A stretch of 32,000 bases of DNA, taken from contig NC_010482.1 in NCBI RefSeq assembly GCF_000019605.1, positions 750,001 through 782,000 of the forward strand. The letters are read 5' to 3'. The DNA comes from Candidatus Korarchaeum cryptofilum OPF8 (GTDB lineage Archaea; Korarchaeota; Korarchaeia; Korarchaeales; Korarchaeaceae). Positions within the stretch are counted from its first letter, which is position 1. Every line of letters starts with the position of its first letter. The translations under genes and the position numbers were made by a program. Below, piece after piece: positions 4,566 to 31,269 of the stretch. The notes under the pieces were generated by a model, which was not told the origin of the DNA, searched no databases, and saw only the letters and a list, made by a program, of their open reading frames with translations.

Positions 4566-4919
4566 ATGCCCAGGTTCGTTGTACAGGAGCATCACGCTAG
4601 GAGGCTCCACTGGGACTTGAGGCTGGAGATGGATAATGTTTTGAAATCCTGGGCCCTGCCCAAGGGCGTCCCCGAGAAGAGGGGAGTCAAGAGGCTGGCC
4701 ATAGAGACTGAGGACCACGATCTCTCCTACATAGATTTCGAGGGCAGGATACCGGAGGGGATGTATGGAGCCGGTGAGGTGAAGATATGGGACTCCGGCG
4801 AGTATGAATTGCTGGAGAGGACGGAAAATAAGATAAAGTTTTTAGCAAAAGGGAGGAAAATGAATGGAGAATACGTACTCATAAAGACGAAGGTAGGATG
4901 GCTGTTGATGAAGGCTTGA
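4566..4919 (+). CDS. Stand-alone LigD-type 3'-phosphoesterase (PE) domain protein
   Basis: The 117-aa product carries RFVVQEHHARRLHWDLRLE...VLKSWALPKG.P, the canonical LigD PE motif (FV.Q.H.A..LH.DLRLE, SWA.PKG). Confidence 0.85.
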   Translation: MPRFVVQEHHARRLHWDLRLEMDNVLKSWALPKGVPEKRGVKRLAIETEDHDLSYIDFEGRIPEGMYGAGEVKIWDSGEYELLERTENKIKFLAKGRKMNGEYVLIKTKVGWLLMKA

Positions 4920-4955: not shown

Positions 4956-6017
4956 TTGGGGGAGATCTTGTTAACGGAGGATGAGATAGACCGTTACGCT
5001 AGGCAGTTGGTACTCAGAGATATAGGTTTGAGGGGCCAGGAGAGGCTTAAGAGCTCCAGAGTAGCGATACTAGGGATGGGCGGGCTGGGGACACCTGCAG
5101 CCCTCCTGTTAACGAGGATGGGCATCGGGTTCATCAGGATAGTTGATAGGGATATAGTTTCTGGGACCGATCTGCACAGGCAGGTCCTCTTCAACTTAGA
5201 CGACGTCGGATTACCGAAGGTAGAAGCTGCTAAGACTTCCCTGAATAAGATGAATCCTGATGTGGAGATAGATGCTATCGCAATCCCCATCCTGAATGAA
5301 AACATAGATAAGCTCATAGAGGATGTCGATCTCATAATAGATGGCTTGGATAATATCAGGACGCGGTACATAATCAATAGAGCAGCTTTAAGGATGGGGA
5401 AACCTTACATATTCTCAGCAGCTGTCGAGATGTTCGGTATCGTGAGCACGATAATCCCTGGGGAGACCCCATGTCTAGAATGCTTCTACTCCGGGCTCCA
5501 GGATGAGTTCCTGCCGAGATGCGCTGTCGTCGGCGTCCACCCTAGCATCACTTTCATCACATCTGCGATAGCTGTATCTGAAGCTACTAAGCTCATCGTG
5601 AGCGGGGAACCGGGCTTGAAGGGCAAGCTCCTCTTCATAGATCTTAGGAGCATGGATTTCAACTTGCTGGAACTGAAGAGGGACGAGAATTGCGGCGTAT
5701 GCGGGAGAGGCGTTGCTCCCGAGATAGAGCAACCGCTAGTAGAACTGGGGTGCGCGAGGGATGGTAAGAGCGTTTACTTCATAAACAAATTTATAGATGG
5801 ATTTAATATGGATGAAGCGGTGACTAATATATTAAAGATAGGTTCTATAACTAGGATGGGGGATCAGTTCATTAAATTCAAGATAGATGAATCGCTTCAG
5901 GGGACACTTTTCAAGAGCGGTTCTATGATCATAGAGGTCAGCGGGATGGCCACGTTGAATGAGAGGGAGATAATTGGAATATATGAGAGTATATCTAATG
6001 TAAAAATCTATCGATGA
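4956..6017 (+). CDS. ThiF/MoeB/UbaA-type E1-like adenylyltransferase with an uncharacterised C-terminal extension of about 95 aa
   Basis: RYARQLVLRDIG..GQERLKSSRVAILGMGGLGTPAALLL..MGIG.IRIVDRD is the E1 Rossmann/ATP motif. Two CxxC pairs (CLEC, CGVC) and a candidate active-site Cys (PRCAVVGV) are present. A TTG start follows a TATA-like AGTTAAAAATAAGG. Confidence 0.8.
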   Translation: MGEILLTEDEIDRYARQLVLRDIGLRGQERLKSSRVAILGMGGLGTPAALLLTRMGIGFIRIVDRDIVSGTDLHRQVLFNLDDVGLPKVEAAKTSLNKMNPDVEIDAIAIPILNENIDKLIEDVDLIIDGLDNIRTRYIINRAALRMGKPYIFSAAVEMFGIVSTIIPGETPCLECFYSGLQDEFLPRCAVVGVHPSITFITSAIAVSEATKLIVSGEPGLKGKLLFIDLRSMDFNLLELKRDENCGVCGRGVAPEIEQPLVELGCARDGKSVYFINKFIDGFNMDEAVTNILKIGSITRMGDQFIKFKIDESLQGTLFKSGSMIIEVSGMATLNEREIIGIYESISNVKIYR

Positions 6018-6280: not shown

Positions 6281-7135
6281 CTAATCCAGCCTCATAACGC
6301 ATTCAGACCTGAGCAGACACTCTCTGCACAATTTCTTCGAGCAATACAGCTTCTCATGGAGGTAGAATACTGTTTGGGCCCATCCAGCTAGCCTTCCTAA
6401 TGATCTAGATGCGAGCCTCCTCACGCACTCATTTGCGGGACAGTCGTGACACTCATACTTAACGCACATACTCCTCTTAGGGAGTTCGAAGTCCCAGAGA
6501 TCGAGCTTCCTAACCATAGATATGAAGTGCCTGTCCACTGGGACTGATGTAGTATCGGCTATCCCAAAGAGGAGGAATGCATCAGCTACCTTAGGCCCGC
6601 AGTACTTACACCTCAAGATTCCCCTCCTAGTCGTCCATATATCCTCGCTCATAGCTGATGCTATACAGGGAAAAGATTCCCTGAGCCTCCTCAATTGATA
6701 ACTCCCAGCTACCCTTGGAGCAATTTCTGCAGCTTCAAATGGGTCGTCTGTCATCTCCCAGATCTTTCTGGACCACTTAATCACGTTCCCGTGATAATTA
6801 GTGGATTGAGAGAGGAAAATCGGGATCATTATGTGGAGCGGATCTTGAGGATCTACGGAGAGCCCCAGATTTGGGTACTGTGCTCTGAGTAGATCTACGA
6901 GCCAGGGCAATCCCGTCTCCTCCGAATCCAGGATATCCATAAACCAAGCTCCGCTCCAATATAATGCTTCCTCGCACTCCGTCAGCAAGAATCTCCCATC
7001 AACTCTCATTCTGCATCCTTTCTTCATCCCCGCTACTTTCACATAAGTCTCATTCGATCTATCGAAAAGTGAGAGTGTAAATGAAGGATAGAGAGTTAAT
7101 TCGAGGTCCACTGGCTTTATCTCTATCTTCTCCAA
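6281..7135 (-). CDS. HhH-GPD superfamily DNA glycosylase, Ogg-like, with a Cys-rich C-terminus
   Basis: CGPKVADAFLLFGIADTTSVPVDRHF matches the Ogg-type HhH-GPD motif (G.KVAD...L...PVD.H), with the Lys and Asp in place. The C-terminal Cys arrays are CVKYECHDCPANEC and CSKKLCRECLLRSEC. The start is TTG, preceded by AGGTGAT. Confidence 0.65.
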   Translation of the reverse strand: MEKIEIKPVDLELTLYPSFTLSLFDRSNETYVKVAGMKKGCRMRVDGRFLLTECEEALYWSGAWFMDILDSEETGLPWLVDLLRAQYPNLGLSVDPQDPLHIMIPIFLSQSTNYHGNVIKWSRKIWEMTDDPFEAAEIAPRVAGSYQLRRLRESFPCIASAMSEDIWTTRRGILRCKYCGPKVADAFLLFGIADTTSVPVDRHFISMVRKLDLWDFELPKRSMCVKYECHDCPANECVRRLASRSLGRLAGWAQTVFYLHEKLYCSKKLCRECLLRSECVMRLD

Positions 7136-9019: not shown

Positions 9020-10641
9020 TCCACCCTGAACTTAGCTGAGTAATCGTACAGGAACCTCCAGAAGGCCCTGTTTACTGTTATCACGATCAGCGTTAGAACA
9101 GCTGTTATGAAGATAACGGATGATATATCACCTCTATCCCAGGCAGCGATACTCAGCAGAGTCCCCAAACCATATTGAGCCCTCTTACTCGGGAAGACCT
9201 CATTCCCCACCTTTATGTACTCTGCCACTATTAGGGAATTCCATGCGCCGCCCCACGCGGTTATCAAGCCAGTGACTATGGAGGGGAACATGCCCGGGAT
9301 CACCAACTTCCTCAGGTAGAGGGAGCCCCTTATGAGGAAGACCTTCCTCATCTCCTCTAGATCCGATGATATAGACTTAACGCCGGCCAGGGAGTTGAAC
9401 AAAACGTAGAACTGAGCCCCGAATAGAGCTAGCATTATCGCAGCTATCTCGAACCCCTCATCCCCCAGGGGAAGCACTATATACTTGACTAGGAAGGGCC
9501 AGAGCACCGGGATAGGGAAGGAGGCGGCTATCTCGAATAGCAGCATGAACTCATCCCAATGCCTTCCCCTGCCCACGAGGAGGGATACCGGTATCGTCCA
9601 GGAGAGGGAGATCAGGAGGACCGTCAAGACCCTCCTGATGGAGTTCAGAGATGCTATAAGTATCAGATCGGGCTCCCCCATGTACTCGGAGGAGGGCATT
9701 TCCAGTGTAATATGCGGAGCTATTTTCATCGCTGAATATGCGATAAATAAAATCAGGAGGAGGAAAGTGCCCTTCTTTATAATTCCAGCCCTTCTCTCCA
9801 CGAAACTGACGAACCCCGCTACATAATTCCTTATAGGGAGCCTCAAAATATATCTGAGAGAGCGGAAGAATGATCTATAGAGGAAGGGTGGTATCCTCAC
9901 CCTCGGGATCTCGAATACTCTCTTTCTCTTGATCTCACCTGCTGAATACTCGTACTTGAAGTTCTCGCTCCATTCCATGAGAGGTCTCCAGATGAATAAG
10001 TATGTGAAGGAGACGAGGAACATCGTTATCAGGACCGATAGGATGGCGATATCGATCCTAGGGGGTGATTCCGCGAGGGATAGGGCGAGAAGGCTTCCAA
10101 TACCTGGAAGCGGTATCTGGGCATTGCCCAATGATATGATCTCAGATGCATAGAGGAAGAACCACCCCCCTCCCCAGGACATAGCCGAGTTATAGATGAG
10201 CTTCGTCATAGTAGCCGGCAAGAGTATTTTCCTCAAGTAAAGGAACTTTCCTATTCTGTACACGCGCACCATTTCCTCCAGATCCCTCGGTATGAGCTTC
10301 ACAGCTTCGTACACTCCGAAAGTCATGTTCCACACTTGAGATGTGAATATGAGGAAAATTGAGGAGATCTCCGCACCTATATAGGGACCGAAGAGGTTTA
10401 TGAAGAATATTATGGCGATAGGGAGGAAGCTGAGTATGGGAACGCTCTGGAGCACATCTAGGAGGGGTATTATTATGTGCTCAGCTTTCTCATTCTTTGC
10501 AGCCAGTATGCCGATGGAAAGAGAGAAAATGAGGGAGAAGAGGTATGCGATGATCATCCTGAGTAATGATAGCAGCGCGTAGACTGGCAGCAGGAAGTAG
10601 GAGAGCAGAGGGATCACCCCCCTTCCTAGCTGAGAATTCAT
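9016..10641 (-). CDS. ABC transporter permease, two fused BPD-type transmembrane domains
   Basis: The 541-aa product is highly hydrophobic. The module ...DLEEM.RV(F)..R(G)..YLRK(I/L).(L/I)P is duplicated, i.e. two EAA-like loops. A 4-nt overlap links it to the downstream ATPase gene. Confidence 0.85.
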   Translation of the reverse strand: MNSQLGRGVIPLLSYFLLPVYALLSLLRMIIAYLFSLIFSLSIGILAAKNEKAEHIIIPLLDVLQSVPILSFLPIAIIFFINLFGPYIGAEISSIFLIFTSQVWNMTFGVYEAVKLIPRDLEEMVRVYRIGKFLYLRKILLPATMTKLIYNSAMSWGGGWFFLYASEIISLGNAQIPLPGIGSLLALSLAESPPRIDIAILSVLITMFLVSFTYLFIWRPLMEWSENFKYEYSAGEIKRKRVFEIPRVRIPPFLYRSFFRSLRYILRLPIRNYVAGFVSFVERRAGIIKKGTFLLLILFIAYSAMKIAPHITLEMPSSEYMGEPDLILIASLNSIRRVLTVLLISLSWTIPVSLLVGRGRHWDEFMLLFEIAASFPIPVLWPFLVKYIVLPLGDEGFEIAAIMLALFGAQFYVLFNSLAGVKSISSDLEEMRKVFLIRGSLYLRKLVIPGMFPSIVTGLITAWGGAWNSLIVAEYIKVGNEVFPSKRAQYGLGTLLSIAAWDRGDISSVIFITAVLTLIVITVNRAFWRFLYDYSAKFRVE

Positions 10642-10714
10642 AAAAACTTGTCCAGCGTTGCTTCATGTAAGCGTTCTCAGAATATCCATAAAGTCGGCTC
10701 AAAGGATCGAGTAA

Positions 10715-11557
10715 TTAAATCCGAGAATCTGGAGAATCATTGAACCAGAGCATTTCCTCGAGCTTCTTCCCCTTCCTCCTCCTCTTACCCATTATGGGGT
10801 AACCTCCGATCGATTCGTAAGCCCTCTCAGCTAGGGCATCCGCCTCCCCCTCGGAGAACCTGTTCCAGCCACGCGAGAACTTGAAGTTCCCGGGCGAGGT
10901 CCAGCTTATATCGAAATCATCCAGATCTTCAGGGAGTATAGGGACTGTGACAACATCCAGCTTCCTGTGGAAGCATAGAGGAGCTGTGAAAACTCTCCTT
11001 GGCATTATCTCGTTCGCGAGAATTAATTTCTCAGCATTATACTTCCTTCTGATCTCCTCCACTTTGGATTCCAGCTTCAGCCTGACGAACTCAGTGATGG
11101 ACCATGCTATATCGAGCGGGTTGGCTTTCTTGGATATTGATAGAGGATGTATGTGCACATGAGCCCCATTCCCACTCCAGATTATGAATACGGAGTTCCT
11201 CAATCCCTCTCCATTCAGGAAGTTTACTATCTCCCTTATCACCTCCACAGTAGCCCTCCAGTTCCCTATCTCGCTATCTATATCCCAAGTGGGCGTTACA
11301 GATACGACATTCCCCTCATCGTAGACGTCCTCTCTGCTCTCTATCCTCCCATATATCTCTATCGTTCCATAGAGGGTCCTGGGCCTTAAGGAGCGGAGAA
11401 GGTTATCTAGCTCCAGCTCGTCCCTCACCCTCAAGGGCTTCCCATTCAAGTACCTCCTGAACCCGCTCTCAGCCTGAACTGAGACCCACCTCCCCCTGAG
11501 GAAATCTATTAAAGCTTCCCTGACATCGGCCCTCGAGAAGTGATCTAGTGCATGCAT
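10715..11557 (-). CDS. Archaeo-eukaryotic primase (AEP) superfamily protein, PriS-like, lacking the zinc-knuckle insert
   Basis: AEP motif I is TPTWDIDSE (D92-x-D94) and motif II is FIIWSGNGAHVHI. The motif III region ANEIMPRRVFTAPLCFHRKLDVVTVPILPEDLDDFDI parallels the crenarchaeal PriS sequence ..[32 protein letters not shown]. The protein has only one Cys. Confidence 0.7.
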   Translation of the reverse strand: MHALDHFSRADVREALIDFLRGRWVSVQAESGFRRYLNGKPLRVRDELELDNLLRSLRPRTLYGTIEIYGRIESREDVYDEGNVVSVTPTWDIDSEIGNWRATVEVIREIVNFLNGEGLRNSVFIIWSGNGAHVHIHPLSISKKANPLDIAWSITEFVRLKLESKVEEIRRKYNAEKLILANEIMPRRVFTAPLCFHRKLDVVTVPILPEDLDDFDISWTSPGNFKFSRGWNRFSEGEADALAERAYESIGGYPIMGKRRRKGKKLEEMLWFNDSPDSRI

Positions 11558-12339
11558 TACGGCACCTCGGACTCGCTCTTCCTCCTGGCTTCAGCTATCC
11601 TCTCCATTACCTTCTTTGGGAGGGCATAATCCTCCTTGGAGAATTCAGCTGGACCTATTATCTCCATCCCCTTCCCCGGAATTATCTCTATCTCGTACAT
11701 CCTGAGATCGTGATTGGTCTGCCTCATCTTCTCTATCATGAGGAACCTCCTCAGCCTCCCTCCCTTGACGGACCTCCTGAACCTTATTATGCCATCCGCT
11801 ATATGCTCTATCCCGAAACCGAATGCCTCAGAAGTGGATATAGCGTATTGGGAAGTGGCCAATATAGTGAAATCCCACTTGCTGAAGACCTTCTTTATGT
11901 AATAACTGTACTTCCTCGCCATAGCTGGCTTATCCAACCAGAAAGCGCTCAGGGAATCTATTATGAGCCTGGCCCTCCCATATCCCAGCTTCTTCTTCGC
12001 ATCTATTACCTTCTGGACTAATGCCTCCGGATCGAGGGAGGTCAGGCTCCACTCATCGGTAGCGAGGAGGGCATCTATCACTATTACCTTGCCCTCCTCA
12101 ACCCCCTTCCTGATGTCCATACCCAGGAGTTCAGCTTGCTCCAATATCGAGTTCCTCGATTCCTCCGTAGTCACGTATATGACCTTATCCCCCTCCTCAT
12201 ATCCCCGCCACGCGAAATGCTGGCAGAGTATCGATTTCCCTGTCCCGGGCTCTCCAGTGATAGCGACGAGGAACCCCCTGGGTATACCGCCTTCCAGCAT
12301 CTCATCCAGCTTCCTTATGCCAGTCGAGAGCCTATCCAT
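11557..12339 (-). CDS. KaiC/RadA-like RecA-superfamily ATPase (single domain)
   Basis: STGIRKLDEMLEGGIPRGFLVAITGEPGTGKSILCQHF (Walker A), VIYVTTEES and RLIIDSLSAF (Walker B) match the typical archaeal KaiC-like single-domain layout. Its TAA stop overlaps the downstream ATG (TAATG at 11555-11559). Confidence 0.85.
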   Translation of the reverse strand: MDRLSTGIRKLDEMLEGGIPRGFLVAITGEPGTGKSILCQHFAWRGYEEGDKVIYVTTEESRNSILEQAELLGMDIRKGVEEGKVIVIDALLATDEWSLTSLDPEALVQKVIDAKKKLGYGRARLIIDSLSAFWLDKPAMARKYSYYIKKVFSKWDFTILATSQYAISTSEAFGFGIEHIADGIIRFRRSVKGGRLRRFLMIEKMRQTNHDLRMYEIEIIPGKGMEIIGPAEFSKEDYALPKKVMERIAEARRKSESEVP

Positions 12340-12359: not shown

Positions 12360-12373
12360 TATAATTAATTATA
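12360..12373. promoter_or_regulatory. Perfectly palindromic AT box TATAATTAATTATA in a divergent intergenic region
   Basis: The box lies 21-34 nt upstream of the KaiC-like ATG (12339, minus strand). A second TATA-like CTTTAAAG (about 12425-12433) serves the plus-strand gene at 12461. Confidence 0.45.
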
Positions 12374-12460
12374 ATGCATAGCTTTATCTCCTCCCGTCAG
12401 TTGAAGTGCCCCCCCCGAGCATCCACTTTAAAGAGCCAGGCGCAATAGCTCGGGGATCTC

Positions 12461-13018
12461 ATGAGGGATGTCCTCGAGCGGGACTTCTTCCGGAGGAGGC
12501 CAGATATAGTCGCGATGGATCTGCTCGGCAAAGTCATCCTGAACAGGAGGAGGGAAGCTGCGGGCATAATAATCGAGGTGGAGCCTTACTTCGGCCCCGA
12601 GGATCCGGCATCCAGGGCTAGGAAGGGAGGTGATCTAGCTAGGACTATGGGAAGCGAACCTTGCACAGCCCTAGTTTACGGAGTCCACAGGCAGTGGCTC
12701 CTCAACATAGTCGCTCACGAGGATGGGGAGCTGGGGGCTGTGCTGATGAGAGGGATAATCCCCATAGATCCCGTGGCATTTAAGCCCTCGAAGCCTATAT
12801 CGGGACCCGGACGCGTCACAAAATATTTGGGTGTGGATAAGAGCTATCATAAGGCTTTCTTATGCAGTTATGATGGAGAACTGCAGCTTAGGCATGGGCT
12901 GAGCCTTGATACTAGCATAATAATCAGATCTAGGAGGGTCGGGGTGAGGGAGGATCTCCCAGAGCCCTTCAACTTCAAGGTACGAGTAGAGGAGCTTTTG
13001 AAAATATTGAAGAGCTGA
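12461..13018 (+). CDS. mpg: DNA-3-methyladenine glycosylase, Mpg/AAG family
   Basis: FFRRRPDIVAMDLLGKVI......G.IIEVEPYFGPEDPASRA..G........G.....VYGVHRQWLLNIV......GAVLMRG..P.....GPGRVTKYLGV fits the AAG-family pattern (VA..LLGK, E.EAY.G..D.AS, YG.....N.V, VL.R...P, GPG....L.). Confidence 0.8.
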   Translation: MRDVLERDFFRRRPDIVAMDLLGKVILNRRREAAGIIIEVEPYFGPEDPASRARKGGDLARTMGSEPCTALVYGVHRQWLLNIVAHEDGELGAVLMRGIIPIDPVAFKPSKPISGPGRVTKYLGVDKSYHKAFLCSYDGELQLRHGLSLDTSIIIRSRRVGVREDLPEPFNFKVRVEELLKILKS

Positions 13019-14180: not shown

Positions 14181-14340
14181 AAGGGCAGGTGAGGGTTGAG
14201 GATAAAAAGCGTGATTGAACTAACGGGCCCCTATTTATGTAGATTCTATCATTCCACTGAGAGATCGATATAGATCTCAAATAACGGTATATTTATGTTA
14301 ACAACAAGTTTTCAATTCAGCCAATCGATACTTTTTTATT

Positions 14341-14366
14341 CACATAACTCACATAATTCACACATG
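14341..14366 (+). promoter_or_regulatory. Tandem 9-mers CACATAACT CACATAATT CACACATG abutting the vapB start, downstream of a T-rich TATA (14333-14340)
   Basis: The repeats are read directly from the sequence. They span the predicted transcription start and the ATG (14364), a position typical of an autorepression operator. Confidence 0.35.
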
Positions 14367-14678
14367 GCGAACATAACTCTGAGCATCCCGGACTGGCTCT
14401 ACAAATTGATGAAGAAGTACAGCGCGGTGAACTGGTCTGAGGTAGCGAGGAGGGCCATAGTAAAGGAGATACTCGCAATTAAGGCAGAGGAAGAGGGATT
14501 AAGTAGGGAGGAACTCTCCCTTCTTATGGAAATAGAAAGTATTGAGCTTCCCGAGGAGAGAAAGGTGCCCATAAGTGAGGAGGAACTCCAGGCTAAGGTG
14601 AAGGATAGGGAGAGGAGGAGGTTAGGGAAGCTCAGGGAGGTGGACTTTGATCCTAGATACATCCTCCTTGATAGTTAG
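14364..14678 (+). CDS. vapB: Ribbon-helix-helix (CopG-like) antitoxin, VapB-type
   Basis: MANITLSIPDWLYKLMKKYSAVNWSEVARRAIVKEI has the beta-strand/helix-helix pattern. The C-terminal tail is acidic and basic. The gene overlaps the downstream PIN gene by about 32 nt. Confidence 0.55.
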   Translation: MANITLSIPDWLYKLMKKYSAVNWSEVARRAIVKEILAIKAEEEGLSREELSLLMEIESIELPEERKVPISEEELQAKVKDRERRRLGKLREVDFDPRYILLDS

Positions 14679-14987: not shown

Positions 14988-15683
14988 TTGATCTCAGCAT
15001 CCCTTACAGGAGCGAATGAGCAATATTTAAATAAATTGAGTATCATCTCTTTCTCAGATATCCGAGAAGCTAAGAAGGAGTTCATCGAACTGCTTGAGAG
15101 GGATGAAGAGTTTCGCTACACTGTAGCAGGTTTTCTGGGATTATCCGAAATACTGAAGAGGCTTGAAAAACTTGAGGAAGGCCAAAACAAGCTATGGGAG
15201 GAGGTGAAAAAGATATGGGAGGAGGTGAGGCTGATCAGGATCGACTACAACAGGATGAGAAAGTACATACGCGTAGGATTTGGCGATCTGGGCAGAGCGC
15301 TCAGAGTAACATTTGAGGATCATTCTGCATCCTTTCTTGAGGTTTTGCTCGAGGAGCCTGAATATACTGATGCAAGAATCGAGAGGAAGGTACTTGTGCA
15401 TGATGGTGAGGCTGTCGAGATAAACATGTTCTGCGAGGATCCTCTGGTCGTTAGAGAGGCCATGATTAGCATAGAAAGCATGGAAGAAGCTGAGAAAGAG
15501 GTAGAGAAGCTGTTAAAACGCGTGGAAGTTGTGGAGAAGAGGTATGGGAAGAGGCCGATGCTCGTGGTATTATCCGTCGCTAGGCCGGCACCTGGAGTAT
15601 CGAGAAGGCTCGAGGATCTGGCAAAGAGGCACGGGATAAAGCTGGTGCTGGGAGAGGAGATAGAAGAAGCGATAGCTATATAA
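14988..15683 (+). CDS. Coiled-coil + PD-(D/E)XK-like fold protein (DUF3782-like), intact paralogue of the 7196-7700 pseudogene
   Basis: An N-terminal heptad-rich region (ILKRLEKLEEGQNKLWEEVKKIWEEV) is followed by ...GEAVEINMF.EDPLVV.E..ISIES...EKE...LLKRVEVVEKRYGKRPMLVVLSV. The start is uncertain: TTG at 14988 or TTG at 15036, with a TATTTAAATAAA box at 15023-15034 between them. Confidence 0.55.
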   Translation: MISASLTGANEQYLNKLSIISFSDIREAKKEFIELLERDEEFRYTVAGFLGLSEILKRLEKLEEGQNKLWEEVKKIWEEVRLIRIDYNRMRKYIRVGFGDLGRALRVTFEDHSASFLEVLLEEPEYTDARIERKVLVHDGEAVEINMFCEDPLVVREAMISIESMEEAEKEVEKLLKRVEVVEKRYGKRPMLVVLSVARPAPGVSRRLEDLAKRHGIKLVLGEEIEEAIAI

Positions 15684-23933: not shown

Positions 23934-24509
23934 ATGGTCCAACCCCTCGAGGAATTCTTGATATACGTAGACCCCTCCCGTTGCGTCGGATGCAGGAGCT
24001 GCGAGATAGCTTGCGCAGTTGAACACTCCTTGAGCAAGTCCCTTTATGCTTCTATCTTTGAGGATCCCAGGCCTAAGCCCAGGACGAGCGTCGTTGTGGC
24101 CGATAGTATTTACGTCCCCATGAGGTGCATGCACTGCGATCCCGCTCCGTGCGTCAAAGCGTGCCCCACGGGATCCATGCATAGGACTGATGAGGGATTC
24201 GTCATCTCGGATCCCTCCAAGTGCATAGGTTGCAGGACATGCTTGTTAGCTTGCCCATTCGGTCATCCGAGTTACAGTAGAGCCGGAAAGGTGATCAAGT
24301 GCGATCACTGCGTCGATAGGTTCAGAGTGGGGCTGCCGCCAGCCTGCGTCGAGGCGTGCCCCACCGGGGCCCTCAGGTTCGGCAGGGCTGAGGAGCTGCT
24401 GATGGAGGAGAAGAGGAGGAGGGCCCTCGAGCTAATAATAGGGATGGGGGAGGGAGGGGTCGTCTACAAGAGGGCATCCTCCGGCTTCCCCTCTCTCATA
24501 GGGAGGTGA
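23934..24509 (+). CDS. cooF: CooF-type 4Fe-4S ferredoxin-like electron-transfer protein
   Basis: Four Cys clusters are present: CVGCRSCEIAC, CMHCDPAPCVKACPTGS, CIGCRTCLLACPFG and CDHC...PACVEACPTGAL. Confidence 0.85.
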   Translation: MVQPLEEFLIYVDPSRCVGCRSCEIACAVEHSLSKSLYASIFEDPRPKPRTSVVVADSIYVPMRCMHCDPAPCVKACPTGSMHRTDEGFVISDPSKCIGCRTCLLACPFGHPSYSRAGKVIKCDHCVDRFRVGLPPACVEACPTGALRFGRAEELLMEEKRRRALELIIGMGEGGVVYKRASSGFPSLIGR

Positions 24510-24513
24510 TCTT

Positions 24514-26436
24514 ATGGAGGAGAGAGTTTATGAGAGGATATTGAGGGCCACTAAGAGGGAGTTCTATGAGCAGGCATCGATAGACCCGACGGTCCTACCG
24601 CTACTCGAGAAAGCTGATAGGGAGGGTGTAGAGACCGCTTGGCACAGGTACCTCAAGCAGCAGCCCCAATGTGGCTTCGGATTGCTGGGTGTGTGCTGCA
24701 GGAATTGTAACATGGGTCCCTGCAGGATAGATCCATTCGGCTATGGCCCGGATAAGGGTATATGCGGTGCTGATGCCGATACGATAGTAGCTAGGAACCT
24801 CATGAGGGCACTGGCTGCTGGTGCAGCAGCTCACAGCGATCACGCTAGGGATATAGTGGAGGTGTTCAGGGGGATAGTGGACGGATGGGCCAAGGATTAC
24901 AAGATAGCTGATGAGCAGAAGTTATTGGGTATAGCGAGAGCCCTCGGGGTGAAGACGGATGGAAAGAGCATCATGGAGGTCGCCAAGGAGGTCGTGGAGA
25001 TAGCCGAGATGGAGTTCGGTAAGCCGGATAATTCGCCTCTCAGGTTCCTTAACGCATATGCCCCTGAGAGGAGGAAGGAGCTATGGAGGAAACTCGGAAT
25101 AACTCCTAGGGCTATAGATAGAGAGGTAACTGAGATCATGCATAGGACCCATATGGGAGTGGATGCCGATCCGCTCAATCTGATAGCTCAGGGCCTCAGG
25201 GCAGCGCTGGCCGATGGTTGGAGCGGATCCATGATGGCCACCCTCTTCAGCGACGTTATGTTCGGGACGCCCAAGCCCATAAAGGTCTGGGCTAATCTTG
25301 GAGTGCTCAGGGAGGATTCTGTTAACGTGATGGTCCACGGCCACAATCCGCTGCTCTCCATGCAGATAGCTGAAGTTGCGAAGGATCCCGAGATGGTTGA
25401 ACTAGCTAAGAGCGTGGGAGCTGAGGGAATTAATGTAGTGGGAATGTGCTGCACTGGTAATGAAGTATTGATGAGGCTGGGAATTCCTATAGCCGGCAAC
25501 TTCCTCCAGCAGGAGCTCGCGATTATAACAGGAGCTCTGGAAGCTGTGATAGTGGATTACCAATGCATAATGCCAGCTCTAGTCGATGTAGCCTCATGCT
25601 ACCACACTAAGATAATAACGACGGAGCCTAAGACGAAGATACCGGGGGCAATTCACATAGAGTTCGATAAGGCCAACGCTAGGGAGAGCGCCAAGAAGAT
25701 ACTGAAGGTGGCTGTGGAGAACTTCAAGAATAGGGTGAAGGAGAGAGTTTTCATACCTAAGGAGAAGATGGAAGCCGTGGTCGGCTTCAGCGTTGAGGCG
25801 ATACTCTCAGCCCTAGGAGGGTCCCTAGAACCATTGGCTGATGCCCTCAAGAGCGGGAAGATAAAGGGAATAGCTGGAGTGGTCGGCTGCACGAACCCGA
25901 AAGTGAGGCACGATAGCTCCCACGTGGCGATAACTAAGGAGCTCATAGCCAACGATATCCTAGTAGTTGGTACTGGCTGCTGGGCAATAGCGATGAGTAA
26001 GCACGGTTTCTTCAAACCTGAGGCAGCTGAGATGGCTGGGCCAGGGCTGAGAGAGGTGTGCAAGGCTCTAGGGATACCTCCCGCCCTCCACATGGGGAGC
26101 TGTGTAGATTGCAGCAGGATGCTAATAGCTTTAGCAGCTCTGGCCGATCATTTGGGGGTTGATATCAGCGATCTACCTGCAGCCGGCTCGGCTCCTGAGT
26201 GGTACAGTGAGAAGGCCGTATCCATAGGTAGCTACTTCGTAGCGAGCGGTCTCCTCGTCCATCTAGGGACGATCCCTCAGGTCCTGGGATCCAAGAGAGT
26301 AGTGGAGCTGCTGACCAAGGACGCCGAGAGTTTAGTCGGTGGCAAGTTCTTCGTAGAGACCGATCCGGTGAAAGCGGCTAGGGTCATGATAGAGCACATA
26401 AGGGAGAAGAGGAGAAAGCTCGGCTGGCCAGAGTGA
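24514..26436 (+). CDS. cooS: Anaerobic Ni-dependent carbon-monoxide dehydrogenase catalytic subunit
   Basis: The 640-aa product has the N-terminal CGFGLLGVCCRNCNMGPCRI (B/D-cluster Cys), plus HGHNP, GMCCTGNE and GSCVDCSR. An SD GGGAGGTGAT lies at 24501-24510. Confidence 0.95.
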   Translation: MEERVYERILRATKREFYEQASIDPTVLPLLEKADREGVETAWHRYLKQQPQCGFGLLGVCCRNCNMGPCRIDPFGYGPDKGICGADADTIVARNLMRALAAGAAAHSDHARDIVEVFRGIVDGWAKDYKIADEQKLLGIARALGVKTDGKSIMEVAKEVVEIAEMEFGKPDNSPLRFLNAYAPERRKELWRKLGITPRAIDREVTEIMHRTHMGVDADPLNLIAQGLRAALADGWSGSMMATLFSDVMFGTPKPIKVWANLGVLREDSVNVMVHGHNPLLSMQIAEVAKDPEMVELAKSVGAEGINVVGMCCTGNEVLMRLGIPIAGNFLQQELAIITGALEAVIVDYQCIMPALVDVASCYHTKIITTEPKTKIPGAIHIEFDKANARESAKKILKVAVENFKNRVKERVFIPKEKMEAVVGFSVEAILSALGGSLEPLADALKSGKIKGIAGVVGCTNPKVRHDSSHVAITKELIANDILVVGTGCWAIAMSKHGFFKPEAAEMAGPGLREVCKALGIPPALHMGSCVDCSRMLIALAALADHLGVDISDLPAAGSAPEWYSEKAVSIGSYFVASGLLVHLGTIPQVLGSKRVVELLTKDAESLVGGKFFVETDPVKAARVMIEHIREKRRKLGWPE

Positions 26437-26441
26437 CCTTT

Positions 26442-27224
26442 ATGGGGCTCAAGATAATAGTGGCCGGGAAGGGAGGGGTCGGAAAGACAACCGTCGCCTC
26501 ACTACTCTCATTTTTTCTCTCATCAAGGGGGAAGAGGGTTTTGGCTCTGGACACGGACTCCGTGCCCAACCTAGCTCTCTCCCTAGGCCTTCCCAGGGAG
26601 ATGGAGAGTAAGATAGTTCCAATAGTCAAGGACGAATCCCTCGTCGAGGAGAGGACGGGGGCGAGACCCGGCGAGAGCTGGGGCCTCCTCTTCAGGCTGA
26701 ATCCGAAGGTCGACGATATCGTCGATAAATATGGGATAAGGATTAGCGAGAATTTGAGTCTCCTGGTGGTTGGCAGCATAGATTCGGCAAAACAGGGATG
26801 CCTCTGTCCAGCTATATCTTTGGGAAAGGCCCTTATCTCCCACATACTGATGGAGGAGCGTGACGTGATCGTAGTGGACTCGGAAGCCGGGGCGGAGGTC
26901 TTCGGTAGGGGATTGGCTGAGAGATTCGATCACATGCTCTGCGTCACTGAGTCGACTCAGAAGTCCCTGGAGATAGCTAAGAGGATCGCCAGGATGGGCA
27001 GGGAGCTGGGGATAAGGGAAGTCACCTACATAGTTAACAAATTCTCCGGTGATGAGAGCGAGAGGCTCAGGATATCCGAGACCTTAGATGCGAGGCATTT
27101 CTTCATCCCTTATGATTATTCCCTGATCAGAGCCGAGATCGAGGGGAGGAGCCTGAAGGAACTGGATGAATCCTCCCCAGCAGTTCAGGCCCTGAGATCG
27201 GCCTTCGAATCTATTTTCGGGTGA
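26442..27224 (+). CDS. cooC: CooC-type Ni-insertion accessory ATPase
   Basis: It has the deviant Walker A motif IVAGKGGVGKTTVAS and the metal-binding C-x-C (GCLCPA). The alternative GTG start at 26433 overlaps the cooS stop. Confidence 0.9.
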   Translation: MGLKIIVAGKGGVGKTTVASLLSFFLSSRGKRVLALDTDSVPNLALSLGLPREMESKIVPIVKDESLVEERTGARPGESWGLLFRLNPKVDDIVDKYGIRISENLSLLVVGSIDSAKQGCLCPAISLGKALISHILMEERDVIVVDSEAGAEVFGRGLAERFDHMLCVTESTQKSLEIAKRIARMGRELGIREVTYIVNKFSGDESERLRISETLDARHFFIPYDYSLIRAEIEGRSLKELDESSPAVQALRSAFESIFG

Positions 27225-27229
27225 TCCTC

Positions 27230-29176
27230 ATGCCCAAGGTCGGGGTTTACGTTTGCCATTGTGGTAAGAACATAGCCGGGAAGGTGGATGTCCAGAGAGT
27301 AGCCGCTGAGATGAAGAAACATCCTCAGGTCACTGTATCGAGGCATTACTTCTTCATGTGCAGTAGTTTCGGTCAGGAATTGATAAAAAGGGATATAAAG
27401 GCAGGGAAAGTTGATAGGGTCGTCGTAGCCGCCTGCAGCCCCAAGCTCCACGAACCCTTATTCAGAGGGGTTGTGGAGGAAGCTGGACTGAACTTCGGTT
27501 ATTATGAGCAGGCTAACATAAGGGAACTCGTCTCCTGGTCGACTGAAGATCCAGAGGAGGCCACCAGGAAAGCTATAGCCTATACTTGGGCTGCTGTGGA
27601 GAGGGTCCTCGAGGCAGAGCCGGTGGAGAGCGAGGAGTTCAGGGTGAACAGGGAGGCCCTGATAATAGGGGGAGGAGTGGCCGGTATAGCGGCAGCTCTC
27701 GATCTAGCTGAGAAGGGAATAAGGGTCCATATCATAGAGAGATCTCCTACAATAGGAGGTAAAATGGCTCTATTGGATAGAGTATTTCCTACGGGTGACT
27801 GTTCACTTTGCATACTCACTCCCATGATGGCCGAAGCCGAGCACAACCCTAACATAACCATTCACACTATGTGCGAGGTCACGGAGGTGAGCGGATCCGT
27901 CGGCGACTTCAGGGTGAGAGTTAAGAAGAGGGCCAGATATGTGGATCAAGATAAGTGTGTGGCCTGCGGTATATGCGCGGAATCATGCCCCGTGGAGGTT
28001 CTGAATGAGTGGTACGCCAGGCTGGGGAAGAGGAAAGCTGCTTACATACCTTTCCCCCAGTCCGTCCCCAGGGCTTATGTCATAGATAGGGAGAATTGCC
28101 TTTTCTTCAGGGATGGAAGCTGCAGGAAGTGCGAGGAGGTCTGCCCGGCCAAGGCAATAGATCTGAGTGAGAGCGATGGGGAATTCGAGCTCAGAGTGGG
28201 GGCTATAATAGTGGCGACGGGAGCTGACGAGTACGATGCCAGCAACCTCAAGAATTATGGTTATGGGAAGATAGCTGATGTCATAACGCATTTTGGTTTC
28301 GAGAGCCTCATAAATGTCAATGGTCCGACTGGTGGTCACCTGAGGAGGCCATCCGATGGTAAAGTACCTGAGAGCATCCTTTTCGTGCAGTGCGCCGGGA
28401 GCAGGGATGTCAACAATAACCCTTACTGCTCCAACGTCTGCTGCATGATAACGCTCAAGCACGCTGAGATAATCAGGATGGAATATCCCGAGACCAAAGT
28501 TTACGTGGCCTACATAGACATGAGGACCCCTAAGAAGGGGTTCGAGGAGATGTACGCCAGGGTGAGGGAGGAAGGCGTAGTCTTCATCAGAGGGAAGCCG
28601 GGAGAGATAAGGAGGGAGGGGGATAAGTTAGTTACAGAGATATATGATGAGGTGCTAGGTGAGAAATTGAGGCTGGAGGTTGATATGGTCGTGCTAGCCG
28701 CGGGCCTCAGCCCATCCGAGGGAACTCTCTCCATCTCGAGGACGCTGAACATACCGAGGGATCTCTACGGATTTCTTCAGGAATTACATCCAAAACTGAA
28801 GCCAGTTCAGACATCCAGACCGGGCATATTCATATGCGGTACTGCTCAAGGTCCTAAAGACATTCCAGATTCGGTAACACAGGCTAAAGCGGCGGCTAGT
28901 GAGGCTGCTAGGCTCTTGATGATAGGAAAGGTCTTAGTGACCGGGGAGAAGGCGAAGGTGAATTCCGAGCTATGCACGGGTTGCGGGGCATGCGTCGAGG
29001 AGTGTCCCTTCTCAGCCATAGTGCTGGAGGAGGGGAAGGCCAAGGTGCTCCCTCTCGCCTGTATGGGGTGCGGTATATGCCAGGGGGCCTGCCCGACTGG
29101 AGCTATAGAGAGGAGGCTCTACGATCACGGTCAGATCCTCAATCAGATAGATGGCCTGTTGGAGGTGGTGACATGA
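27230..29176 (+). CDS. hdrA: Heterodisulfide reductase subunit A-like flavoprotein
   Basis: The N-terminus reads VYVCHCGKNIAG and the FAD motif IIGGGVAGIAAALDLAEKG. Four ferredoxin-type CxxCxxCxxxCP motifs are present: CVACGICAESCP, C..CRKCEEVCP, CTGCGACVEECP and CMGCGICQGACP. An SD GGGTGATCC precedes the ATG; GTG at 27221 is an alternative start. Confidence 0.9.
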   Translation: MPKVGVYVCHCGKNIAGKVDVQRVAAEMKKHPQVTVSRHYFFMCSSFGQELIKRDIKAGKVDRVVVAACSPKLHEPLFRGVVEEAGLNFGYYEQANIRELVSWSTEDPEEATRKAIAYTWAAVERVLEAEPVESEEFRVNREALIIGGGVAGIAAALDLAEKGIRVHIIERSPTIGGKMALLDRVFPTGDCSLCILTPMMAEAEHNPNITIHTMCEVTEVSGSVGDFRVRVKKRARYVDQDKCVACGICAESCPVEVLNEWYARLGKRKAAYIPFPQSVPRAYVIDRENCLFFRDGSCRKCEEVCPAKAIDLSESDGEFELRVGAIIVATGADEYDASNLKNYGYGKIADVITHFGFESLINVNGPTGGHLRRPSDGKVPESILFVQCAGSRDVNNNPYCSNVCCMITLKHAEIIRMEYPETKVYVAYIDMRTPKKGFEEMYARVREEGVVFIRGKPGEIRREGDKLVTEIYDEVLGEKLRLEVDMVVLAAGLSPSEGTLSISRTLNIPRDLYGFLQELHPKLKPVQTSRPGIFICGTAQGPKDIPDSVTQAKAAASEAARLLMIGKVLVTGEKAKVNSELCTGCGACVEECPFSAIVLEEGKAKVLPLACMGCGICQGACPTGAIERRLYDHGQILNQIDGLLEVVT

Positions 29177-30054
29177 GCTACGTGATAGGCTTCTGCTGTA
29201 ATGAGTGCGCTTATGCTGCGGCTGATCTAGCTGGTAGCACTCACAGGAAGCATCCAGCGAATGTATTGGTGATAAGGATACCCTGCTCCGGTACCTTCGA
29301 CCCGTCTTGGCTCGTTTACGCCCTAGCTAGAGGGGCTGATGCAGCTTTCGTGGCTGGTTGCAGGAAGGGGGAGTGCCATTACGTGGATGGAAACCTCAAA
29401 GCTGAGAAGAGGGTTGCTTTCGTGAAACAGCTGCTCGAGGCCGTCGGAGTGGAACCTGAGAGAGTTGAGATGTTCTTCATGGCGTCCTCTGAGCCACATA
29501 AGTTCGTGAAAGCCGCTGAGGAGATGAGTAAGAGGGTGGAGAAGCTCGGCCCTCTCCCACGCAGGGGCAGGATCGATAGGGTAAGGCTGGGGAAGAAGGA
29601 GAACCTTGTTGAGGCCCTTAAAGCAATCGCCAAAGAGTTTAAGGACATCAAGCTTCCTGAAATACCTGGCTTCAAGGTACCGGTTTATGATGAGAGCTGC
29701 ATCGGTTGCGGGGCATGCGTCGAGGCTTGCGAGCGTGATGCCCTCAGGATGGTAGACTCCGATGGATTCAGGAGGATATTATTGAATGCGGCTAGGTGTA
29801 CAGCATGTGGAGATTGTGTTAAGGCATGCGAAGAGAGTGGAGAGTCTTCTCTGAGGCTGGGAGGCATGAGAATGTCTCAATTAATCTCAGATTGGAGTGA
29901 GGGGATCAGGATACCTCTAGTCGCTTGCGAAGTTTGCGGAAAATATTTCGCGACGGAAGGGGAATTGAGGAAAGCGGATTCTCCTCAAATATGCCCGAGT
30001 TGCAAGGAGGTGCTATCCGCTAAAGCGATGTCATTCGGTAAGGTGAGAGCATGA
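29173..30054 (+). CDS. mvhD: MvhD/FlpD domain fused to a 2x[4Fe-4S] ferredoxin domain and a C-terminal CxxC...CxxC element
   Basis: MSYVIGFCCNECAYAAADLAG......V.VIRIPCSG......VY.ALARGADAAFVAGCRKGECHY..GN is the MvhD pattern. It is followed by CIGCGACVEACE, CTACGDCVKACE and CEVCGKYF...CPSCKE. An ATGA overlap links it to the hdrA stop. The ORF-track start at 28972 is an out-of-gene extension. Confidence 0.85.
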   Translation: MSYVIGFCCNECAYAAADLAGSTHRKHPANVLVIRIPCSGTFDPSWLVYALARGADAAFVAGCRKGECHYVDGNLKAEKRVAFVKQLLEAVGVEPERVEMFFMASSEPHKFVKAAEEMSKRVEKLGPLPRRGRIDRVRLGKKENLVEALKAIAKEFKDIKLPEIPGFKVPVYDESCIGCGACVEACERDALRMVDSDGFRRILLNAARCTACGDCVKACEESGESSLRLGGMRMSQLISDWSEGIRIPLVACEVCGKYFATEGELRKADSPQICPSCKEVLSAKAMSFGKVRA

Positions 30055-30536
30055 GCCTCAGGGATGATATAAAAGCGATCTCCGGGCAGGACGTCATGCT
30101 ATGCTTCCAATGCGGGGAGTGTTCATCATCCTGCCAGATGGCCGGTTACAAGGGCTTCTCCCCCGCGAAGTTGATACATTCCATCCAATTGGGAATGGAG
30201 GATGTCCTGAGGTCTAGAATTTACGAACTCTGCCTTCACTGTTTCCTCTGTTCCGTCAGGTGCCCTCAGGGACTGAGCTTCCCGGATATAGCTACAGCAT
30301 TATCCAACATAACTGTGAGGAGGTATGGTCCGGGGAAGATTGAGAAAATGTTCTTAGACGAGATAACTAATAAGGGATTTTTGAACCCAGCTACATTTGC
30401 TCTGAAGACCTTTGGATTCTCCCTCCCCAAATACGCTGGTCTGAAGGGCCTCAAAGCCGCTCCCATTATCTTCGAGAGGGGGAACGTCAGGAGGGAACTG
30501 GTAGAGGAGGTGAGGAGGGTTGCAAGGGAGGGTTGA
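30051..30536 (+). CDS. hdrC: Heterodisulfide reductase subunit C-like
   Basis: It contains CFQCGECSSSC and CLHCFLCSVRCPQG. An ATGA overlap links it to the upstream gene. Confidence 0.85.
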   Translation: MSLRDDIKAISGQDVMLCFQCGECSSSCQMAGYKGFSPAKLIHSIQLGMEDVLRSRIYELCLHCFLCSVRCPQGLSFPDIATALSNITVRRYGPGKIEKMFLDEITNKGFLNPATFALKTFGFSLPKYAGLKGLKAAPIIFERGNVRRELVEEVRRVAREG

Positions 30537-31269
30537 GGCTTACTATCCCGGATGCTCGGCGAGGACCACTGAAAGAGCATATCTGAGGACCGCTCTCTTC
30601 GTCCTCAGGAAGTTGGGGGTGGAATTCAGGCTGCTCGACGATTTACCATGCTGCGGCACGCTGGAGGGTGAGCTCTACAGCAGGGAACTCACCAGGAAGC
30701 TCGCTGAGATAATAAATAGGGAAGCCAATGGGAGAGTTATAACCGGTTGCAGCGGTTGTTACAGCACGATAAACAGGGGCGGTGGTTCTGCAACTCACTT
30801 AGTCGATTTCCTGTTCAGGGAAGTCGGCCTGGAGAGGATAGCTGAGAGGATAGTTAGGAAGGTGGATCTCAAGGTCGCAGCTTACTACGGGTGCCAAGCT
30901 CTGAGGCCCAAAGAGTTGGCTATAGATGATCCGGAGGATCCCAGAGTGCTCGAGGAAATACTATCGCTCACTGGAGTCCAGACAGTAGATTTTCCAATGA
31001 GGACTAAGTGTTGCGGTGGACCAATAGCCCTCAAAGAGCCGGATCTTGCCATAAGGATGGCTAAGGATGTAGTGAAATCTGCTGAGGATAGCGGAGCCGA
31101 GGCCATAGCTACTATGTGCAACCTCTGCCACTTCATGCTGGACTTCTACACATCGGGGCTGCCGATCCTCCACTTCACTCAGATACTGGCTTACTCCATG
31201 GGGATGCCTCCGGATGAGCTGGGATTGGATGAATTATTCAATCCCCCCAGGAAGGGATTCGGGAGGTGA
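30520..31269 (+). CDS. hdrB: Heterodisulfide reductase subunit B-like (two CCG domains)
   Basis: The first CCG domain is YYPGCSA...LPCCGT...GCSGC. The second is YYGCQ...TKCCGGP...MCNLCHF. The TTG start overlaps the hdrC 3' end by 17 nt. Confidence 0.85.
   Translation: MQGRVEAYYPGCSARTTERAYLRTALFVLRKLGVEFRLLDDLPCCGTLEGELYSRELTRKLAEIINREANGRVITGCSGCYSTINRGGGSATHLVDFLFREVGLERIAERIVRKVDLKVAAYYGCQALRPKELAIDDPEDPRVLEEILSLTGVQTVDFPMRTKCCGGPIALKEPDLAIRMAKDVVKSAEDSGAEAIATMCNLCHFMLDFYTSGLPILHFTQILAYSMGMPPDELGLDELFNPPRKGFGR

Follow-up and report, generated by a model that had tools for sequence, protein, structure and literature searches.

A minimal archaeo-eukaryotic primase encoded in overlap with a RadC1-type KaiC-fold ATPase: a conserved archaeal gene pair and candidate DNA repair module

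The window analysed here, a stretch of 32,000 nucleotides (nt) from Candidatus Korarchaeum cryptofilum OPF8 (contig NC_010482.1, positions 750,001 to 782,000 of the forward strand), carries on its minus strand two adjoining genes, the first for a KaiC-fold ATPase and the second for a 280-amino-acid (aa) protein of the archaeo-eukaryotic primase (AEP) superfamily (Table 1). The genes meet in a TAATG pentanucleotide, in which the TAA stop codon of the ATPase gene (11559-11557) and the ATG start codon of the AEP gene (11557-11555) have one base in common; the minus-strand sequence of the junction is GAGGTGCCGTAATGCATGC. An earlier sequence-only reading of this DNA had described the overlap, a palindromic TATA element upstream of the pair and a 73-nt gap downstream of it, leaving the strand unstated, and all three were recovered. 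The AEP gene is translationally coupled to the ATPase gene. Of 67 related pairs, 27 have a Shine-Dalgarno-like tetramer before the junction; the tetramer is thus not a universal part of the arrangement.

The pairing was followed in other genomes by a scan of one genome per species, which gave relatives in 170 genomes; 80 loci were taken and supplemented by loci from a protein look-up, and open reading frames (ORFs) were called in the collected loci (~86) and searched with both window proteins. Of the neighbours of the AEP gene only KaiC recurs, at 72 of the ~86 loci, and every other neighbour family is restricted to at most 17 loci and tracks lineage. Adjacency was counted for the short form of the AEP (≤345 aa), using the 74 genes for which 900 nt or more of upstream sequence was available. 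KaiC lies directly upstream on the same strand in 61 of these loci and 0.4-2.7 kb upstream in a further seven, while the remaining six show no KaiC within ~5 kb. The intervening genes were considered as an extra subunit and this was ruled out, as they encode an unrelated alpha/beta hydrolase or acylphosphatase in most of the seven loci. Among the 61 adjacent pairs, stop and start codons overlap by 4 nt or 1 nt in 38, in the form of TTGA, ATGA or GTGA, or of TAATG/TGATG in Methanodesulfokora. The phyletic survey that had been proposed for this gene pair therefore finds it in several classes, namely Korarchaeia (Methanodesulfokora), Bathyarchaeia, Brockarchaeota, Methanomethylicia and thermophilic Nitrososphaeria including Wolframiiraptor. 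Since the junction is kept across related loci and the catalytic residues of the AEP are 100% conserved (see below), the pairing is more than chance, and the retention of stop/start overlaps across classes argues for stoichiometric co-production. The median identity to the window proteins outside Methanodesulfokora is 65% for KaiC and 42% for the AEP; the KaiC partner evolves slowly and the AEP faster.

The ATPase consists of a single KaiC domain (Pfam PF06745, E = 2.9e-56) and passes the NCBIfam model TIGR03881 KaiC_arch_4 with 358.8 bits, against a cutoff of 247.8. Its best match among solved structures, by far, is SSO2452 of S. (Saccharolobus) solfataricus (PDB 2W0M, E = 1.1e-92, residues 2-230), and BLASTP gives 56-63% identity to 50 Sulfolobales orthologs. 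Sequence comparison hence identifies the window ATPase as an ortholog of the RadA paralog SSO2452, within the aRadC/RadC1 group. This group of RadA paralogs (SSO2452, Sto0579, RadC1, 'Rad55') is made up of proteins that form rings with ADP, bind single-stranded DNA (ssDNA) tightly, possess an ATPase activity stimulated by DNA, and act on RadA-mediated strand invasion in vitro either as stimulators or as inhibitors, and deletion of aRadC in S. islandicus results in sensitivity to DNA-damaging agents (PMC4080772, PMC8708640, PMC10003305). The ssDNA binding, the DNA-stimulated ATPase activity and the modulation of RadA are known for Sulfolobales proteins only (PMC4080772, PMC8708640). The window ATPase agrees with SSO2452, Sto0579 and RadC1 in length, in its single KaiC domain, in the Walker A motif and in the acidic catalytic residues, but differs from them in genomic setting: the gene is solitary in Sulfolobales, Acidilobaceae and Njordarchaeales (a KaiC ortholog without an AEP neighbour was found in S. 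islandicus and in one metagenome-assembled genome (MAG) each of the latter two), whereas it is coupled to an AEP gene in the window and ~70 other genomes. In the Njordarchaeales contig (L090, 5001-8491) the solo KaiC ortholog directly adjoins, and converges with, genes for the NurA-HerA end-resection proteins.

The sequence-only reading had likened the pair to the primase-helicase modules of plasmids and viruses, and this analogy is not supported by the ATPase. The DnaB_C model reaches 21.2 bits, under its cutoff of 27; the DnaB_C, RecA and Rad51 models match only the P-loop region, below their cutoffs, and the matches to phage DnaB-like and primase/helicase PHROGs are weak and likewise lie over the P-loop region. 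Given its orthology to SSO2452/aRadC and the reported properties of the aRadC proteins, the ATPase is a member of no helicase family and not a helicase-type motor. Three KaiC/RadC1 orthologs are unusually long, at 802-828 aa (L024 970-3378, L036 2422-4893, L073 1564-4050). Domain fusions were suspected in these ORFs and ruled out, the additional sequence being LAGLIDADG homing-endonuclease inteins within the ATPase domain in all three.

For the 280-aa protein, searches of Pfam and NCBIfam at E≤0.1 and of the PHROG and PADLOC models gave no match, nor did a phmmer search of the PDB. A homolog search yielded 94 proteins, nearly all labelled 'hypothetical protein', the nearest of which (83-99% identity) belong to the korarchaeon Candidatus Methanodesulfokora and the others to Bathyarchaeia, Thermofilaceae, Wolframiiraptor and 'Nitrososphaerota' MAGs. 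An alignment of 25 family sequences was used for a profile search, a member-wise Pfam scan and an AlphaFold model. The profile gave a weak match to Pyrococcus PriS in the PDB (E = 0.026), in which motif II and the '...R..P.S.LH.K' segment are aligned. In the Pfam scan PF01896 was matched by seven of the 25 members (best E = 2.3e-4) and PF21686 (LigD_Prim-Pol) by four (best E = 0.018), all below threshold, and none of the family members tested passed the cutoff of any Pfam, NCBIfam or PHROG model. Conversely, the fold is clear from the AlphaFold2 model of the 280-aa protein (predicted local distance difference test score (pLDDT) 91.6, predicted template modelling score (pTM) 0.87), in which disorder is confined to the final 24 residues. 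Foldseek returned 62 matches in the PDB at E≤1e-3, of which the best 50 are all AEPs with probability 1.00, including human Pri1, Pyrococcus and Sulfolobus PriS, LigD polymerase domains, Prim-PolC and CAPP. The highest template modelling (TM) scores were obtained for Prim-PolC (0.58), the Methanocella non-homologous end joining (NHEJ) polymerase (0.57) and LigD-Pol (0.55), with Sulfolobus solfataricus PriS at 0.52, and viral AEP models are no nearer than cellular ones. The structure prediction suggested earlier thus gave no sign of a non-AEP fold; an AEP fold is established for the modelled protein, without assignment to a particular AEP clade. The 280-aa protein is a minimal AEP, the short form of a formerly unannotated family.

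The residues expected of an AEP active site are found throughout this family. Motifs I (DID) and II (SGNGAHVH) and the PriS-like P.C.H.K/VP/LDDF segment had been read from the sequence before, and all are present in the 280-aa protein. D92 and D94 are kept in 128 of 128 family members as well as in 13 of 13 outgroup members, and the residues that are 100% conserved among the 128 members are D92, D94, G129, G131, H133 and H197. The gap between motifs I and II, ~35 residues long, is spanned in the model by a single helix (97-116). In the segment around H197, which corresponds in the alignment to 'RLPSTLHSK' of Pyrococcus PriS, residues P193, L194 and H197 show full or almost full conservation; further motif residues are K199, V205-P206 and L212-D-D-F215. 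The sole cysteine of the protein, C195, lies in this segment and is replaced by serine in most relatives. As there is no conserved cysteine column in the family, the lack of a Zn-knuckle noted earlier for the single protein extends to the whole family.

At motif III the earlier observation of N-E (N182-E183) in place of the acidic Asp of crenarchaeal PriS was borne out, and the alignment puts it in perspective. Of 130 family members, 127 have an acidic residue at 181 or 183, and all 24 members with alanine, cysteine or serine at 181, the window protein with its A-N-E among them, carry Glu183. Positions 181 and 183 lie on or next to one modelled beta strand (179-182), so that their side chains should share a direction. 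A compensatory relocation of the third catalytic carboxylate between 181 and 183 may have taken place, with E183 as the probable metal ligand in the window protein. The disordered C-terminal tail is also conserved, the consensus 'RrRRRK.kpLD.mIl.wl' being kept among 64 short-form tails, and its sequence would be compatible with a docking or DNA-binding role. In combination, these observations support an active-looking AEP, with putative catalytic activity, that is not a canonical PriS by any criterion tested: the 280-aa protein matches neither PF01896 nor TIGR00335, and it is without a zinc module, a PriS C-terminal domain and a PriL-like domain.

The AEP family also contains proteins of 390-500 aa, which carry one of two unrelated C-terminal extensions. 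Type A (~460 aa, e.g. P0044, P0092) occurs mostly in Bathyarchaeia and 'Nitrososphaerota' MAGs, and type B (~400 aa, e.g. P0041, P0043) includes Thermofilaceae proteins. None of the five long-form loci has a KaiC neighbour. In one Bathyarchaeia contig (L013) a KaiC-coupled short AEP (4986-5840, plus strand) and a long copy (9490-10797, minus strand; at least 435 aa, cut by the end of the locus) lie 3.6 kb apart, and the two forms are therefore paralogs able to coexist. The C-terminal domains, of ~120-170 aa, have no Pfam match in either type, and hhalign detected no similarity between the type A and type B domains or between either of them and the PriL-like domain of the outgroup. Type A is marked by the invariant segment GRFQVM..LQAA...AKSFGLNRAIFYAWAK, and its AlphaFold model (m08d24b80d159) shows a helical hairpin, a small sheet and a helical bundle at residues ~305-462, with pLDDT ~80-90; the AEP domain dominates the Foldseek matches of this long-form model. 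A neighbour-joining tree, in which some distances are undefined and which has no support values, hints that type A forms a separate clade and that type B falls among the short forms. Two observations were made on the neighbourhoods of long forms. In Infirmifilum lucidum (L001; 855-3477 and 6001-7203) NurA-HerA end-resection genes are located ~2.5 kb upstream of the long-form AEP gene, and a radical-SAM gene lies just upstream of the AEP gene in two unrelated long-form loci (L006 4911-5987; L008 4908-5960, the latter of the wyosine-formation type).

The surroundings of the pair are those of an ordinary chromosome. The window encodes CorA, P5C reductase, ThiF, an ABC transporter, an AlaX-like editing protein, carbon monoxide dehydrogenase (CODH)/CooC, Hdr/Mvh subunits and PIN/PaREP1 proteins. 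The flanks of the related loci consist of housekeeping genes that differ between lineages, and the window and ~85 related loci contain no integrase; there was also no sign of a tRNA target or of repeat borders. The next minus-strand gene after the AEP gene, for an ABC transporter permease, starts at 10641, and the gene in this downstream position is not kept in other genomes. On the other side the TATA-like palindrome is held in a 121-nt divergent intergenic region common to the ATPase gene and a gene for methylpurine-DNA glycosylase (MPG). The divergent MPG arrangement recurs in two loci (L009, 124-684; L010, 3535-4203), and an MPG homolog lies within ~4 kb of the pair in four Brockarchaeota-type loci (L007, L059, L074, L082), so that an MPG gene is adjacent or near in seven loci, window included. 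A second repair-type gene in the window, for a stand-alone LigD-type 3'-phosphoesterase, has counterparts next to the pair in two Bathyarchaeia loci, where KaiC, AEP and phosphoesterase genes form a row on one strand, with the phosphoesterase gene (L085, 5943-6383; L088, 5944-6384) 76 nt downstream. In bacterial LigD the AEP polymerase domain adds ribonucleotides to 3' ends, which are then trimmed by the phosphoesterase. A reading of the pair as a defence system was ruled out, as PADLOC gave generic P-loop matches only.

Table 1. Features of the ATPase-AEP locus, with positions counted from the first letter of the window
Feature	Position	Strand	Remarks
KaiC-fold ATPase gene	11557..12339	minus	260 aa
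Minimal AEP gene	10715..11557	minus	280 aa
TAATG stop/start overlap, ATPase to AEP	11555..11559	minus	read from sequence
Shine-Dalgarno-like GAGGTG	11563..11568	minus	5 nt before the AEP ATG, within the 3' end of the ATPase gene
Palindromic TATA-like element TATAATTAATTATAAT	12360..12375		21-36 nt upstream of the ATPase ATG; putative promoter
Spacer, AEP stop to next gene	10642..10714	minus	73 nt
Walker A motif GEPGTGKS, ATPase residues 29-36	12232..12255	minus	from sequence; aligns with SSO2452 GEPGTGKT
AEP motif I, W91-D92-I-D94-S95	11273..11287	minus	metal-binding aspartates; D92 and D94 invariant
AEP motif II, W127-SGNGAHVH-135	11153..11179	minus	G129, G131 and H133 invariant; aligns with Pyrococcus PriS ySGrGyHirV
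AEP beta strand I179-L-A-N-E183	11009..11023	minus	probable motif III carboxylate E183; from conservation and AlphaFold2 strand 179-182
AEP P193-L-C-F-H197-R198 motif	10964..10981	minus	equivalent to the PriS '...P.S.LH.K' nucleotide-binding segment
AEP disordered C-terminal tail, residues 257-280, RRRKGKKLEEMLWF	10718..10789	minus	basic cluster and short amphipathic helix; pLDDT <50
Methylpurine-DNA glycosylase (MPG) gene	12461-13018	plus	PF02245; divergent from the ATPase-AEP pair
Stand-alone LigD-type 3'-phosphoesterase gene	4566-4919	plus	PF13298, E = 1e-39; ~6 kb from the pair

Elsewhere in the window, a run of plus-strand genes (23934-31269) encodes a ferredoxin-like protein, a CODH catalytic subunit (Prismane family), a CooC-like ATPase, an HdrA-like flavoprotein, MvhD and HdrC/HdrB-like proteins, and fits the energy metabolism of a Methanodesulfokora-type korarchaeon. 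Three further ORFs have no Pfam match: 6281-7135 (minus, 284 aa), 14295-14678 (plus, 127 aa) and 14988-15683 (plus, 231 aa).

The earlier reading had proposed a repair module or one derived from a mobile element. The repair part of this proposal fits best, because the ATPase is a SSO2452/RadC1 ortholog and the 280-aa protein fails the canonical PriS models; a present-day mobile origin is not supported, no integrase having been seen in the window or in ~85 related loci. The pair is, with moderate confidence, interpreted as a vertically inherited chromosomal two-gene module for repair or repriming rather than a replicative primase; that the module is chromosomal and old, and no mobile element, is supported by the survey. 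The AEP resembles the repair enzymes LigD-Pol, mycobacterial Prim-PolC and the Methanocella NHEJ polymerase in being small, zinc-less and single-domain, in the structural comparison (TM 0.55-0.58), and in the LigD-type phosphoesterase gene that is adjacent in two AEP loci and near in the window. It differs from them in that the sequence similarity is marginal and in that the conserved partner here is RadC1; neither Ku nor an ATP-dependent ligase is found among the recurrent neighbours of the AEP or the few neighbours annotated.

The most economical mode of action would start from the overlap of the two genes, by which both proteins would be made in fixed proportion and could act as a complex. 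The ATPase may assemble on ssDNA at resected breaks, gaps or stalled forks, and would there recruit or position the AEP, possibly via the basic, amphipathic C-terminal tail of the latter. The AEP could then extend a 3' end or make a short primer, leading to gap filling, break joining or repriming, and in some lineages a LigD-type phosphoesterase might subsequently trim the 3' end. The existence of the complex, the recruitment through the tail and the nature of the substrate are inferred.

Several points weigh against a repair module. The links to repair genes are sporadic, with an adjacent phosphoesterase gene in two and an MPG gene in seven of the ~86 loci. A role as signalling hub has also been proposed for KaiC-like ATPases, and the closest sequence relatives of the AEP are the fused primases of DPANN archaea, which are replicative. 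Furthermore, the solitary ATPase orthologs of Sulfolobales, Acidilobaceae and Njordarchaeales mean that the AEP partner is dispensable, and the role of RadC1 in vivo is debated, between recombination mediator and anti-recombinase.

The best surviving alternative, considered unlikely, is that the AEP is the catalytic subunit of the replicative primase, a highly diverged and stripped-down PriS that has displaced the canonical one, with the RadC1-type ATPase as an accessory or merely co-regulated protein. The relatives of the AEP outside its own family lend this some weight. Its profile, searched against 1.84 billion representative proteins, reached just 341 clusters at E≤1e-3 and 72 at the stricter E≤1e-30, which means that thousands of canonical PriS clusters are beyond its reach and speaks for an enzyme distinct from canonical PriS. 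The next-best full-length matches (E 1e-14 to 1e-9) fall into two groups, one of proteins of 400-480 aa that carry PF01896 together with the PriL model PF04104, and one of proteins of ~1000-1300 aa that combine AEP, MCM-like ATPase and winged-helix domains. The former group corresponds to the PriS-PriL fusion primases of Aenigmatarchaeota and other DPANN archaea, with pairwise phmmer E-values against the family down to 9e-13 among the fetched ORFs. Outside the family no sequence relatives nearer than these fused enzymes, of the Nanoarchaeum equitans type, could be detected. They share the compact catalytic domain of the family, and they serve as the replicative primase of organisms without separate PriS and PriL (PMC7414124). 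They have, however, a PriL-like C-terminal domain of their own (PF04104), which the window protein lacks. The weak PF01896 matches described above and the UniRef name of the Infirmifilum long form, 'DNA primase small subunit', point in the same direction as this relationship, as does the conserved, chromosomal and apparently vertical inheritance of the family.

With canonical PriS (PF01896, TIGR00335; PriSL/PriSLX) the window AEP has in common the AEP fold, motifs I and II and the ...R..P.S.H.K nucleotide-binding segment, but it has neither the zinc knuckle nor the PriS C-terminal domain, its motif III carboxylate is a shifted glutamate, the PriS models miss it, and it contains no PriL-like part. 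Its partner is a RecA-fold ATPase of the recombination type, and PriL is not among the recurrent neighbours at the ~86 loci. A point for the replicative reading is that no canonical PriS was found in the fetched sequence (~0.9 Mb), where phmmer searches of the ORFs with DPANN PriS-PriL and an approximate S. solfataricus PriS sequence matched members of the AEP family only. In contrast, a canonical PriS is documented beside Gins51 in Korarchaeum (PMC2861644), and canonical PriL sequences are known from Bathyarchaeia (PMC12770985). The presence of two paralogs of the family in at least one genome (L013) is a further point against a replicative role.

It is rather improbable that the KaiC-like ATPase acts as a switch in signalling or regulation, with the AEP as its output enzyme, or that the two genes are merely co-transcribed without a common substrate. 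Members of the KaiC family have been widely linked to signal transduction, and the ATPase is solitary in many lineages; the KaiC subfamily concerned, however, has a direct DNA-binding and recombination-related biochemistry (PMC4080772, PMC8708640), and the overlap of stop and start codons across classes argues for stoichiometric co-production. Finally, a domesticated or resident replication module of a mobile element, in which a primase is served by a hexameric RecA-fold motor as helicase, is very improbable: the AEP-MCM fusions among the more distant relatives, the weak phage PHROG matches of the ATPase and the inteins in three of its orthologs speak for it, but the ATPase shares ~60% identity with chromosomal SSO2452 orthologs in different phyla and stays under the DnaB_C cutoff, the AEP has neither a PADLOC nor a PHROG match and is no closer to viral AEP models, and the contexts of the window and of ~85 loci are ordinary, lineage-specific and free of integrases, so that the earlier suggestion of a mobile-element origin is not upheld. 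With the primase-helicases of such elements (pRN1 ORF904-type proteins, AEP-MCM fusions, phage primase/helicase) the pair shares the combination of an AEP and a ring ATPase; it differs in that its ATPase is not of the superfamily 3 (SF3), MCM or DnaB type and in that its genes are separate, chromosomal and vertically conserved.

Going beyond the interpretation as a repair or repriming module, the RadC1-type ring ATPase might replace PriL/PriX as the helper of a minimal AEP, yielding a primase or repriming machine of two components, loaded directly on ssDNA. This is a tentative idea that we regard as doubtful. If true, it would represent a primase architecture not described before, in which the long paralogs would be a self-sufficient version of the same enzyme, and it would provide the long-debated aRadC proteins with a concrete biochemical job.

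What is new here is an undescribed conserved combination, the AEP superfamily and the RadC1 ATPase each being already known. In the open-access literature nothing was found that links KaiC or aRadC with an AEP, and an earlier mention elsewhere is possible. Many archaea have kept aRadC/RadC1 proteins, which influence survival of DNA damage and whose action is disputed; a conserved, coupled partner with a polymerase active site is a direct and testable lead on their function. The family also adds an unannotated AEP to the inventory of Bathyarchaeia, Korarchaeia, Brockarchaeota, Methanomethylicia and thermophilic Nitrososphaeria, lineages that have no genetic systems and whose repair pathways are poorly known. 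The two forms, short with an ATPase partner and long with a C-terminal domain of its own, offer a natural experiment in the acquisition of helper functions by minimal AEPs.

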